Shown piece after piece: positions 31,023 to 33,844 of a DNA stretch of 64,000 nucleotides (the first letter of the stretch is position 1; the number at the start of each line of letters is the position of its first letter). The stretch covers positions 3,794,748 through 3,858,747 of the forward strand of contig NZ_AP027041.1 of assembly GCF_027924565.1 (NCBI RefSeq), in the 5' to 3' direction. The notes under the pieces were generated by a model. The model had not been told where the DNA came from. It saw only the letters and a list, made by a program, of their open reading frames with translations, and made no database searches. The position numbers and the translations under genes were made by a program. The stretch is from Lysobacter auxotrophicus (GTDB taxonomy: Bacteria > Pseudomonadota > Gammaproteobacteria > Xanthomonadales > Xanthomonadaceae).

Positions 31023-31436
31023 GACCTTTCACGTCGTTGCACACCGGGACGAAAGTCCCTCCACGGAAACACCCCTTGCGGTGTTCCGCCGAACGCGTCG
31101 CTTCGTGCGTCGCGCGAAACGGAAACCGCAGCGGTGGATCCGCCGGGCTGCCGCCCTAGGGCGTGCCTGCGCTGGTGGTTCGCGTTTCGATCGCACGGCG
31201 TGTTCGTGCATCGGGGTTCGACGGCCTTCGCAGTGCATGCATCGAACGCGACGTGCTCCGCGGGTTCGGCGTCACGGGGTGTTTCCAACTTTTTCGATGT
31301 GCGCTGCGCCTGGCATTTCAGCGCTGTGCACCTCACGCCTCCTGCGCACTCGCGCAAGGAGCGAGCTACACGCGGCGACCGATCCCTCGCGCACCAAGCG
31401 GATCGGACCACCAGAGCCAACAAGGAGGACATTCCG

Positions 31437-32564
31437 ATGTTCTGGACCAAGAAGGTCGTGATCGGTGACGGCGAGCGCGGCCTGGTGTATCGCAACCGTC
31501 AATTCGCAGGCGTCATCGCGCCGGGCGTGCACAAGTGGTTCGACCCGTTCGGCGCGGTCGAAGTGAAGGTGCACAACATCGCGCTGCGCGCCGAGTACGT
31601 CGGCAGCGACGAGAACGCGCTGGTCGATGCACTGGGCGCGCGCCTAGCCGAAACCTTCGTGCTCGCCGACATCGGCGTGGACGAGGTCGGCCTGGTGATG
31701 AAGAACGGCCGTCTCGAGGAGGTGCTCGCGCCGGGCTCGCGCCGGTTGTACTGGAAGGGCCCGATCGCCGTGGCGATCCGCACGCTCGCGCTGCAGGACG
31801 AGCCGGACGTGCCGAACGATGTCGCCACGCGCCTGCGCCAGCTCGGTGTGCTCGAAAAGGTCGCCGTCGTGCTGGCGGTGCCGGCCGAGTTCGCCGGCCT
31901 GGTGTTCGTCGACGGCAAGCTCGCGCGGGTCGTCGGCGCGGGTTCGTACGCCTTCTGGAATTTCCGGAAGAACGTCGTCGTGCAGGCGGTCGATCTTCGC
32001 GTGCAGTCGCTCGAGGTCTCCGGCCAGGAGCTGCTCACGCGCGACAAGGTCAGCCTGCGCGTGAACCTTGCCGCGAGCGTGCGCATCGTCGATCCGGTGG
32101 CCGCGATCACGAAGGTCGCCAAGTACGGTGACTACGTGTACCGCGAACTGCAGTTCGGCCTGCGCAAGGCGGTGTCCGCCAAGACGCTGGACGAACTGCT
32201 CGGCGACAAGGCGTCGCTGGATGCGGACATCTTCGCGTACGTGCGCGGTCGCGTCGGTGAGGTCGGTGCCGAGTTGCTCGGCGTCGGCGTCAAGGACGTG
32301 ATCCTGCCGGGCGAGATGAAGGACATCCTCAACGCGGTCGTGCAGGCGGAGAAGTCGGCGCAGGCCAACGTGATCCGCCGTCGCGAGGAGGCCAACGCCA
32401 CGCGTTCGCTGCTCAACACCGCGCGACTGATCGAGGAGAGCCCGGTGCTCATGCGCCTGAAGGAGCTGGAGGCGCTGGAGAAGATCACCGAGAAGATCGA
32501 CAAGCTCACCGTGTTCGGCGGCCTGGACGGCGTCATGAGGCAGCTGGTGAGCCTGAAGCAGTAA
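31437..32564 (+). CDS. SPFH/band-7 (stomatin/prohibitin-like) domain protein, no TM anchor, C-terminal coiled coil
   Basis: Perfect SD AAGGAGG upstream of the ATG. 375 aa. SPFH core followed by a coiled coil (AEKSAQANVIRRREEANATR…). Confidence 0.8.
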   Translation: MFWTKKVVIGDGERGLVYRNRQFAGVIAPGVHKWFDPFGAVEVKVHNIALRAEYVGSDENALVDALGARLAETFVLADIGVDEVGLVMKNGRLEEVLAPGSRRLYWKGPIAVAIRTLALQDEPDVPNDVATRLRQLGVLEKVAVVLAVPAEFAGLVFVDGKLARVVGAGSYAFWNFRKNVVVQAVDLRVQSLEVSGQELLTRDKVSLRVNLAASVRIVDPVAAITKVAKYGDYVYRELQFGLRKAVSAKTLDELLGDKASLDADIFAYVRGRVGEVGAELLGVGVKDVILPGEMKDILNAVVQAEKSAQANVIRRREEANATRSLLNTARLIEESPVLMRLKELEALEKITEKIDKLTVFGGLDGVMRQLVSLKQ

Positions 32565-32617
32565 GCTGCGTGCAGGCGAACGGATTCGCCTGCACGCCTT
32601 TCACAAGGAATGGAACC

Positions 32618-33844
32618 ATGAACACGCAACACACTTCGTTCGACCTGCTGCACGCGGAAGGTGCGACCACGCCGATCAAGGGCTGGACGCACGGCGTGCC
32701 GGTCGAGGACCAGGCGCGGCAGCAGCTGCGCAACATCACCACCCTGCCCTTCGTCGGGCCGTGGGTCGCGGTGATGCCCGACGTGCACCTGGGCATCGGC
32801 GCGACGGTGGGCTCGGTCGTGCCCACGAAGGGCGCGATCATCCCGGCCGCGGTCGGCGTCGACATCGGCTGCGGCATGGCCGCGGTGCGCACCACGTTGC
32901 GCGCCGACGACCTGCCCGACGACCTCGCGCTGCTGCGCAATTCCATCGAGCGCAGCGTCCCGGTCGGCAACGGCCCGGGCGGCGAGCACCGCCGGATTCC
33001 CGACAGCGTCGAGACGGCGCTGGAGAAGTCCAACCTCGTCGCGCGGCTGGCGAAGATCCGCGAGAAGCACCCGAAGATCCGTCCGGACAAGCTCGACCGG
33101 CAGATCGGCACGCTCGGCGGCGGCAACCACTTCATCGAGATCTGCCTGGACGAGGAAGACCGCGTGTGGGCGATGCTGCACTCCGGTTCGCGCGGCACCG
33201 GCAACCTCATCGGCACGTACTTCATCGAGCTGGCGCGTCGCCAGCTGGAGAAGCGCGTGCTCGGCTTCCACTTGCCCGATCGCGACCTGGCGTTCTTCCT
33301 CGAAGGCGAGCCGCTGTTCGACGAGTACGTCGAAGCGGTCTCGTGGGCGCAGGATTACGCGCGTGCGAACCGCGAGGCGATGATGGTTCGCGTGCTGCAC
33401 GAGATGCGCCAACGCTTGCCGAAGTTCCAGACGGAGAAGTCGGCGGTGAACTGCCACCACAACTACGTGCAGCGCGAGGACCACTTCGGCGAGTCGTTGC
33501 TGGTCACGCGCAAGGGTGCGGTCAGCGCGCGCGAGGGCGAGCTCGGCATCATTCCGGGCAGCATGGGCGCACGCAGCTTCATCGTGCGCGGCAAGGGCAA
33601 CGCGGACAGCTTCCACAGCTGCAGCCACGGCGCCGGCCGCGTGATGAGCCGTACCGCCGCACGTGCGCGCATCACGTTGAAGGAACACCGCGAGGCGACC
33701 GCGCATGTCGAATGCCGGAAGGACGCCGGAGTGATCGACGAATCGCCCGCCGCGTACAAGGACATCGACGCGGTGATGGCGGCGCAGCGCGATCTGGTGG
33801 AGATCGTGCATACGCTGCGGCAGGTGGTGTGTATCAAGGGATGA
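32618..33844 (+). CDS. rtcB: RNA-splicing ligase RtcB (3'-phosphate/5'-OH RNA ligase)
   Basis: Metal-site and His-GMP motifs: GIGATVG, DIGCGM, GGGNHFIE, HSGSRGTGN, CHHNY, SCSHGAGR. 408 aa. Confidence 0.92.
   Translation: MNTQHTSFDLLHAEGATTPIKGWTHGVPVEDQARQQLRNITTLPFVGPWVAVMPDVHLGIGATVGSVVPTKGAIIPAAVGVDIGCGMAAVRTTLRADDLPDDLALLRNSIERSVPVGNGPGGEHRRIPDSVETALEKSNLVARLAKIREKHPKIRPDKLDRQIGTLGGGNHFIEICLDEEDRVWAMLHSGSRGTGNLIGTYFIELARRQLEKRVLGFHLPDRDLAFFLEGEPLFDEYVEAVSWAQDYARANREAMMVRVLHEMRQRLPKFQTEKSAVNCHHNYVQREDHFGESLLVTRKGAVSAREGELGIIPGSMGARSFIVRGKGNADSFHSCSHGAGRVMSRTAARARITLKEHREATAHVECRKDAGVIDESPAAYKDIDAVMAAQRDLVEIVHTLRQVVCIKG

Follow-up and report, generated by a model that had tools for sequence, protein, structure and literature searches.

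This study was concerned with a group of genes and RNA elements on the + strand of a 64,000-nucleotide (nt) stretch of Lysobacter auxotrophicus DNA (contig NZ_AP027041.1, positions 3,794,748 to 3,858,747), which is called the window here and from whose first nucleotide all coordinates are counted. An SPFH/Band-7 gene (31437-32564, 375 amino acids (aa); Pfam PF01145, E=9.6e-31, domain residues 148-319) is followed by a gene for the RNA ligase RtcB (32618-33844, 408 aa; Pfam PF01139, E=4.9e-125). The initial annotation of this DNA, made from the sequence alone, placed the two genes 53 nt apart and gave the SPFH gene a Shine-Dalgarno (SD) sequence. The spacing is exact, with the SPFH gene ending at 32564 and the rtcB ATG at 32618, and the SD sequence AAGGAGGA (31422-31429) lies 7 nt 5' of the SPFH ATG. 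Alignment to RtcB entries of the PDB shows that the motifs GGGNHF, HSGSRG and SCSHGAGR match solved RtcB structures and that the metal- and GMP-site motifs are kept; identity to the RtcBs encoded at most loci outside Lysobacterales, RtcR-linked ones among them, is 57-63%. Also as annotated, tRNA-like elements stand just upstream of the leader of the SPFH gene. There are two, at 30881-30949 and 30953-31019, and the leader between the second element and the SPFH ATG spans 417 nt (31020-31436). The locus is well supported as an RNA-repair module of Band-7/SPFH, b7a-tRNA and RtcB. Such a system is credited to Burroughs and Aravind (2016) in a 2018 preprint (bioRxiv 10.1101/312249) which also cites them for the idea of Band-7 and b7a-tRNA as a scaffold or cofactor. 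The initial annotation called the combination a non-standard Rtc module; it is indeed a conserved SPFH, rtcB and tRNA-like unit unlike the textbook rtcBA-rtcR arrangement, but it is not novel, having been on record since 2016. The abstract of the 2016 paper reportedly names SPFH/Band-7 modules and "a novel tRNA-like molecule" as potential scaffolding cofactors of RNA repair.

Element 1 matches the full Rfam tRNA model (positions 1-71, 43.7 bits) and has a 7-base-pair (bp) acceptor stem with one mismatch, D and T arms and a 4-nt "anticodon" loop. Element 2 scores 51 bits over model positions 4-67 only, and combines a 4-bp acceptor stem and a canonical T arm with the loop CCAAUAA, which has C33. 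Position 33 of a tRNA anticodon loop is normally U. ARAGORN reported element 1 as "tRNA-???" with a 2-base anticodon and rejected element 2. In a cross-clade alignment of 30 sequences, each anticodon-stem pair of element 2 is supported by 7-19 compensatory sequences, the D arm is invariant and the loop is unconserved; among close relatives the anticodon loop drifts between TGT, CAT, AAT and loops of 4-5 nt. By this alignment, element 2 is the conserved core mimic. Element 1 is degenerate or variable among relatives. Lysobacterales and beta-proteobacteria carry a further, degenerate tRNA-like element on the 5' side of the core mimic; AT-rich gamma-proteobacteria have a T-arm minihelix 3' of the core mimic instead. 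The mimics would be unable to decode, given the 4-nt loop of element 1, the C33 and 4-bp acceptor of element 2, and the drift of the anticodon loop. An identity as decoding tRNAs was thus rejected on loop size or U33, on the acceptor length of element 2 and on anticodon conservation. An encoded ACCA closes element 1 and abuts element 2 (30946-30953), so that if RNase P cut at the 5' boundary of element 2, element 1 would be left with a mature-looking CCA end. CACCA also occurs 5' of the main tRNA-like element in clades without element 1.

The leader had been described as free of open reading frames (ORFs) and as a possible structured regulatory RNA. Mechanical ORFs of 69-172 aa, common in DNA of such high G+C content, do run across it on either strand, but its conservation is of the RNA type, with compensatory pair changes and insertions of variable length, and neither a small conserved ORF nor a known riboswitch was found in it. 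The leader folds better than its shuffles (z = -2.7, with 0 of 100 shuffles as good). Its first two-thirds form a 3' domain (31020-31294) that was aligned across 20 Lysobacterales sequences. This domain contains hairpin P1 (31021-31037), with the loop CUUUCAC here and CUNUCAC conserved; hairpin P2 (31046-31059), with a GAAA tetraloop of the GNRA type; the long-range helix P3 (31065-31075 / 31276-31286); the inner long-range helix P4 (about 31135-31147 / 31256-31269); and a U-run after P3 (31290-31294). Over 40 pairs in the 20 sequences, 90.8% of cells are paired, compared with 37-49% when the 3' partners were slid, and 116 cells are compensatory, compared with 20-33 in the slid controls. None of 500 shuffles reaches the observed values. 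In distant clades, where the sequence is unrelated, a helix joins segments 10-50 nt and ~220-290 nt after the tRNA-like element, often with a U-rich tract on its 3' side. A beta-proteobacterial subgroup gives 60 predicted pairs in this domain, 34 of them with compensatory change, and shares the P2 hairpin as well as the motifs CAGCGG and CGCCGGG. RNAalifold returned 0 pairs on a mixed alignment of RtcR-linked and HNH-linked beta- and gamma-proteobacterial 3' domains, which was too divergent; clade-wise alignments worked.

The mRNA-proximal part of the leader (31295-31436) is variable among 18 aligned Lysobacterales loci, except for the hairpin CCGATCC/GGATCGG (31379-31406) and a conserved block, ACCACCAGAGCCAAC, that adjoins the SD sequence. 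Conservation also extends into the 650-nt "intergenic" region upstream, which holds a 5' domain (30553-30880) with 49 pairs, 30 of them with compensatory change, by RNAalifold on 17 sequences. The hairpins at about 30606-30685 and 30718-30762 are specific to Lysobacterales. They are followed by a universal 5' junction made up of CAGCGG (30788-30793), a hairpin, and a helix of GTGCGC (30815-30820) with GCGCAT (30835-30840). This helix is present in all 30 cross-clade sequences, and three of its six pairs have 8-11 compensatory sequences. The structured character proposed for the leader is thus borne out by covariation, but the leader does not stand as a separate regulatory element 3' of the mimics: on these alignments it reads as the 3' domain of one structured RNA of ~750 nt, with the 5' domain and the tRNA mimics inside it. 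A scan of 30200-34400 against Rfam 15 (E<=10) gave only tRNA, a sub-threshold YrlA match and matches at chance level, with no GOLLD or ROOL. Membership in YrlA (RF02553) was rejected at 29.4 bits against a gathering score of 69, and a match to the Pseudomonas sRNA P33 at 30818-30894 (16.6 bits) was dropped, the Pseudomonas loci giving no P33 match.

Conservation of the module was assessed in 80 genome loci that encode the same full-length SPFH family. Partner genes were counted within the flanks, and the T-arm motif GTTCRANYC was searched on the same strand as the SPFH gene. The family (full-length, ~375 aa) comprises 568 clusters at 50% identity (E<=1e-30). One or more T-arm motifs lie upstream of the SPFH gene in 78 of the 80 loci, and ~66 loci have a pair; the distance to the SPFH start is mostly 230-550 nt and reaches ~1000 nt, and the chance expectation, estimated from motif degeneracy, is ~0.06 per kb. 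RtcB is encoded within 5 kb in 47 loci: directly downstream in ~32, downstream past an insertion in ~10, and upstream on the same strand in 6. The other partners are a divergent RtcR upstream (16 loci), an HNH endonuclease gene directly upstream (11), RlaP (11) and RtcA (10), and 27 loci, some on incomplete contigs, have no gene of this partner set. The constant partnership is that of the RNA with SPFH, and RtcB is the commonest third partner. These frequencies also argue against a merely adjacent pairing. The loci cover Lysobacterales, Burkholderiales, Pseudomonas, Rhodocyclales, Methylococcales, Cellvibrionales and single metagenome-assembled genomes (MAGs) of other phyla, and the order, strand and position of the tRNA-like elements relative to the SPFH gene are fixed across classes and phyla. 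Co-occurrence outside Xanthomonadaceae, which the initial annotation had left as a question, is seen in Burkholderia, Pseudomonas, Azonexus, Methylococcaceae, a Chloroflexota MAG and E. coli.

The initial annotation also treated the module as possibly separate from Rtc systems. This did not hold up, since many relatives, among them those of Pseudomonas and Burkholderia, stand in an rtc operon under RtcR and sigma-54 together with RtcA and RlaP, which makes the module an elaboration of Rtc. A sigma-54 promoter lies between rtcR and the first element of the operon in 14 of the 16 RtcR-linked loci. Where the RNA comes first, the promoter (TGGCACG-N4-TCGCW) is found 120-170 nt upstream of the tRNA-like element. 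This placement fixes the 5' end of the RNA in those loci, and makes the RNA, SPFH and rtcB one RtcR-dependent unit there. Four gamma-proteobacterial loci (L046, L067, L072 and L076) have the alternative order of rtcR, divergent sigma-54 promoter, rtcB, rtcA, RNA and SPFH, with RlaP after the SPFH gene in L067. The RNA-SPFH unit in these four is 3' of the ligase genes, and hence no leader for them.

Several other settings of the module were observed. In ~12 genomes (including L029, L080, L036, L059, L023, L037, L039, L056 and L070) the RNA-SPFH module lies directly 3' of a tRNA gene array, with 24 tRNAs in L029 (L029:542-4679) and 18 in L080, and most of these loci also carry the HNH-endonuclease gene. 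The SPFH-adjacent element is nearly canonical in three of them, and was read by ARAGORN as Ile-GAT in L029, Met-CAT in L080 and Gly-ACC in L059. Upstream in L029 there is a GOLLD RNA with an embedded tRNA (1342-1829; RF02032, 153.5 bits, gathering score 150). A 94-kb viral contig (IMG/VR UViG_3300007072_000340, L082:899-7095) carries 36 tRNA genes for nearly all amino acids, and a 198-aa ORF followed immediately by an SPFH homologue (37% identity). A phage origin of the SPFH module was rejected: no SPFH homologue was found in 50,697 GenBank phage records, and at least two were found in IMG/VR. In E. coli STEC639 (L081:4466-6919) a slipin gene and RlaP, with no RtcB, lie between yjbD and lysC, and the same yjbD-lysC segment is present in 1625 of 5426 complete E. 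coli genomes (~30%). In the 5' flank of this pair a sigma-54 promoter (TTCTGGCACGCTTCTCGCAAT) is accompanied by the 5' junction motif and by one T-arm, which is degenerate; the segment has no annotated RNA feature and no Rfam match. It has probably gone unnoticed as part of the RtcR regulon.

Regulation in Lysobacterales follows another plan. RtcR, RtcA and RlaP are nearby in none of ~25 Lysobacterales loci, and all of these have in common a set of promoter, ORF, hairpin and terminator ~700-1030 nt upstream of the SPFH gene, although their flanking genes differ. The sigma-70-type promoter (30284-30312) has a -35 hexamer TTGCAT (30284-30289), a 17-nt spacer and a -10 hexamer TAACTT (30307-30312). 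A consensus sigma-70 scan missed it because the hexamers are imperfect; in 16 aligned Lysobacterales loci CTTGCA-N17-TAnnnT is conserved, with an A/T-rich stretch upstream and GCGCG just downstream. Among the forms of the module, this promoter is specific to that of Lysobacterales. It is followed by a short ORF (30359-30466, 35 codons, MNAVAHIAKRHALQPNGRGLCAFAPRLRDEGTSID), a candidate leader peptide whose stop codon overlaps the first arm of the hairpins downstream. Next comes a nearly invariant 10-bp hairpin, GGGAGATCGG/CCGATCTCCC (30479-30503). Most Lysobacterales loci have an ORF of 34-44 codons that stops 13-22 nt short of this hairpin, and its start codon falls in a conserved ATG column. 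Against translation, the ORF lacks an SD sequence and a Pfam match, its substitutions are evenly spread over the codon positions (39:44:37), and G+C-rich DNA would hold open frames as long as this one by chance. A conserved peptide was ruled out on the even substitutions and the lack of a Pfam match, which leaves a candidate leader ORF only. An intrinsic terminator follows (stem 30516-30528 / 30533-30545, U-tract 30544-30551). In 19 sequences the 23 pairs of hairpin and terminator are 95.6% paired, compared with 34-64% when slid; 8 pairs have compensatory change, and none of 500 shuffles reaches the observed value. Alternative anti-terminator pairings reach 83.8%, barely above controls (14 of 500 shuffles as good), and switching helices upstream of the RNA were rejected for this weak support. 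A trp-like attenuator, in which a ribosome at the stop would favour the terminator and a stalled ribosome would favour read-through, is an attractive model but therefore less likely than not. A conditional terminator of some kind is more probable.

A candidate sigma-54 promoter at 30843-30858 (TGGCGC-N5-GTGCA), 22 nt 5' of element 1, was rejected as unconserved and of chance frequency. Two-mismatch sigma-54-like sites number 24 in the window, compared with 26.7 expected, and in relatives the -12 GC of this block is not kept, covarying RNA helices being found instead. The promoter-ORF-terminator set stands in for the rtcR and sigma-54 promoter of other clades, and the lack of RtcR reads as a trait of Lysobacterales.

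The SPFH protein matches a Lysobacter auxotrophicus "slipin family protein" at 100% identity. Its AlphaFold2 model (predicted local distance difference test score, pLDDT, 89.8) begins with two beta-repeat modules that both have helices after them (residues 4-73 and 74-142), continues with an SPFH domain (143-290) and ends in a helix of ~60 residues (292-353). Neither a Kyte-Doolittle profile nor the model gives an N-terminal hydrophobic segment or a membrane anchor; the sole hydropathy peak (1.9, residues 142-160) is a beta-strand in the model. The annotated solubility of the protein, with no transmembrane helix and a coiled-coil tail, is thus a supported inference. Foldseek matched the cages of stomatin, HflK/C, QmcA, prohibitin, erlin and flotillin. 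The longest alignments, which span the whole protein, were to the major vault protein (MVP), with 400-469 columns, E about 1e-10 and a template-modelling (TM) score of about 0.4, query-normalised. On this model the protein resembles a small, soluble MVP.

From these results the best overall explanation of the locus, covering module identity, anatomy, mechanism and regulation, is one we consider reasonably probable. The sigma-70 promoter, short ORF, hairpin, terminator, ~750-nt RNA, SPFH gene and rtcB appear to form one transcription unit. The long C-terminal helix of the SPFH protein would mediate its oligomerisation into a ring or cage that is soluble, as in other SPFH proteins and MVP, and the protein would form a ribonucleoprotein (RNP) with the RNA. 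The mimics would present a tRNA-shaped handle, which may recruit or concentrate tRNA-directed enzymes and broken tRNAs or may serve as a decoy for anticodon nucleases, and RtcB would reseal breaks with 2',3'-cyclic-phosphate and 5'-OH ends. The same logic has been proposed for Rsr-YrlA beside RtcB. Expression would depend on RtcR and sigma-54 in most other lineages and, in Lysobacterales, on read-through of the upstream terminator. The function is most likely that of a tRNA-mimic RNP scaffold which acts with RtcB, and elsewhere with RlaP and RtcA, in the repair of tRNA and rRNA breaks.

The main rival explanation holds that the noncoding region is chiefly a cis-acting leader. Such a leader would respond to a signal, for example tRNA that is damaged or uncharged, a protein that binds tRNA, or a cut in the mimic itself, and would gate the transcription or translation of SPFH-rtcB through the terminator at 30516-30551, helix P3 with its U-run (31276-31294) and the hairpin before the SD sequence. 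The placement of the RNA agrees with this: it is always upstream of the SPFH gene on the same strand and, in RtcR-linked loci, between the promoter and the first codon. The conserved intrinsic terminator upstream and the conserved hairpin and block that adjoin the SD sequence are also as a leader would have them. The U-rich tract after P3, found in Lysobacterales, several gamma-proteobacterial loci and several distant clades, is a further point in favor, but it is absent in the beta-proteobacterial group. An RNA of ~750 nt with two tRNA folds far exceeds known riboswitches and attenuators. In addition, the RNA-SPFH unit is no leader for rtcB in the four loci where it lies 3' of rtcB-rtcA, and the switching pairings that a regulatory leader would use are weakly supported. 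A mainly cis-acting role is unlikely on this evidence; the RNP-scaffold and cis-regulatory readings are compatible with each other.

A second alternative is that the SPFH protein is an ordinary stomatin/HflK-type scaffold of membrane microdomains, whose adjacency to rtcB and the tRNA-like elements has no meaning for RNA. The NCBI label "slipin family protein," the top fold matches to membrane SPFH cages and the weak hydrophobic peak at residues 142-160 would fit such a protein. The class of membrane SPFH scaffolds (stomatin, HflK/C, QmcA-NfeD) was rejected on three counts, namely the lack of an N-terminal transmembrane or hairpin anchor, the occupation of residues 1-142 by beta-repeat modules, and the lack of an NfeD gene among the neighboring genes. 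The architecture is specific to the family, the tRNA-like RNA is linked to it in 78 of 80 genomes across phyla while the flanks vary, and the module recurs with RtcB, RtcR, RtcA and RlaP, so that an ordinary membrane scaffold is very improbable. Lastly, that the tRNA-like elements are decayed tRNA genes, remnants of integration sites or working tRNAs, with the rest of the leader as unconstrained spacer, is hardly credible: the nearly canonical SPFH-adjacent elements beside tRNA arrays (L029, L080, L059) and the encoded ACCA of element 1 speak for it, but position, order and strand are constant across classes and phyla, stems covary while the anticodon loop drifts (a pattern expected from neither decay nor decoding), both flanking domains are under structural selection, and the acceptor and loop features of both elements depart from those of tRNAs.

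Several points weigh against the RNP-scaffold explanation. First, according to the 2018 preprint the b7a-tRNA had not been validated experimentally (bioRxiv 10.1101/312249), and no later validation was found in the literature. Secondly, in the rtc operon of P. aeruginosa the SPFH gene PA4582/PaFlo8 stands between rtcR and rtcA along with a second gene, PA4584 (PMC8619066, PMC13086221). Deletion of PaFlo8 gave no phenotype in assays of growth, virulence factors, motility, biofilm and oxidative stress; RNA-damage conditions are absent from the assays described. From the gene order in homologous Pseudomonas loci, PA4584 would be RlaP. Third, the oligomerisation of the SPFH protein is inferred from fold similarity only. 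Fourth, the 3' end of the RNA is not fixed, since the U-run is missing in the beta-proteobacterial group. Lastly, RtcB is nearby in only 47 of the 80 loci, and the RNA-SPFH pair may thus serve a function other than ligation.

The locus resembles several known systems. It shares with the b7a-tRNA module a tRNA-like noncoding RNA, an SPFH/Band-7 gene and RtcB in the same order, with RtcR, RtcA and RlaP as partners in homologous loci; the Lysobacter copy differs in that none of RtcR, sigma-54, RtcA or RlaP goes with it, and in the sigma-70 promoter, short ORF and terminator that it has instead. The Salmonella rsr-yrlBA-rtcBA system, in which Rsr is the Ro60 orthologue and YrlA has a tRNA-like domain, also places a tRNA-mimic noncoding RNA with no functional anticodon loop and a ring- or cage-forming RNA-binding scaffold beside RtcB, under RtcR. 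However, the scaffold here is SPFH rather than TROVE/Ro, and the RNA is several times longer, with two tRNA folds. The canonical rtcBA operons (E. coli; P. aeruginosa PA4581-PA4585) have the same type of RtcB, and that of P. aeruginosa has SPFH (PA4582) and RlaP (PA4584) as well, whereas the Lysobacter window has no RtcR, sigma-54 promoter or RtcA. Like the eukaryotic vault (MVP, vault RNA and TEP1), the SPFH protein is predicted to have beta-repeats, an SPFH-like shoulder and a long cap helix, and a small-RNA-like partner is linked to it genetically. MVP has nine repeats. Two are present here, sequence identity to MVP is 12-18%, and the likeness is structural, which does not suffice to place the protein among the vaults. 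The RNA is also comparable to GOLLD and ROOL as a large multi-helix RNA with tRNA sequences, and GOLLD itself stands with the 24-tRNA array upstream in L029, but the RNA in the window matches neither of these nor any other Rfam model.

The surroundings of the module were also inspected. Between the SPFH gene and rtcB there is a hairpin followed by CUUUCAC (32568-32604), read from the sequence, with a perfect 13-bp stem at 32568-32597; no U-run was seen 3' of it, and it is thus not a typical terminator. The CUUUCAC is the same heptamer as the P1 loop (31026-31032). The flanking genes are unrelated and encode a GDSL lipase, an ABC transporter, an extracytoplasmic function (ECF) sigma factor, an AsnC regulator, an isochorismatase and an M28 peptidase; the ORF downstream of the ECF sigma factor matches no Pfam family. 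Absence of the usual Rtc partners, as annotated, holds in the window for rtcR and rtcA: tblastn found no homologue of RtcR, RtcA, RlaP or HNH in it (best E = 0.43, noise), and no sigma-54 activator motif of the GAFTGA type occurs anywhere in it. For archease and Rsr/TROVE the absence covers the ten flanking genes that were scanned with Pfam. Downstream of rtcB a perfect 31-nt inverted repeat with a 24-nt spacer (34010-34095) resembles a repetitive extragenic palindrome or miniature inverted-repeat element (REP/MITE) or a bidirectional terminator, and is the cause of spurious matches to microRNA families in the permissive Rfam scan. A match to the cspA thermoregulator (RF01766) at 42622-42926 on the - strand, with 81.5 bits against a gathering score of 78, is unrelated to the module.

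Taken together, these observations allow a broader reading, which we hold tentatively and with less than even confidence, in which the b7a-"tRNA" is the visible core of a large RNA class. Its members may be ~0.5-0.75 kb long and combine the universal 5' junction with a single or double tRNA fold and a ~250-nt 3' domain that a long-range helix closes. Together with the small MVP-like protein such an RNA would form a soluble vault-like RNP, widespread in Proteobacteria and present in reduced form in ~30% of complete E. coli genomes. The links to tRNA arrays, HNH genes, GOLLD (at one locus) and a viral contig would then mark an island for backup and repair of the tRNA pool. The rewiring in Lysobacterales to a sigma-70 promoter, short ORF and conditional terminator could couple induction to translational stalling. 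No description of such a large RNA class was found in the papers that could be searched. As far as could be checked, the extent and structure of the RNA, the vault-like model, the Lysobacterales rewiring and the links to tRNA arrays, GOLLD and E. coli are new.

Bacterial RtcB has few established substrates, and in RNA-repair systems the least is understood about the proposed cofactors that consist of a scaffold and an RNA (Rsr/Y RNA and Band-7/b7a-tRNA). This study supplies targets in the form of RNA coordinates with structures supported by covariation, and a protein model of high confidence, from which an assembly that is soluble and vault-like is predicted. The RtcR-dependent and RtcR-independent versions of the module form a natural comparison, and tractable hosts carry it, namely ~30% of E. 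coli strains, P. aeruginosa, Xanthomonas and Stenotrophomonas. Should the proposed RNP exist, bacteria would have a counterpart of vaults and, with it, a new large structured RNA.

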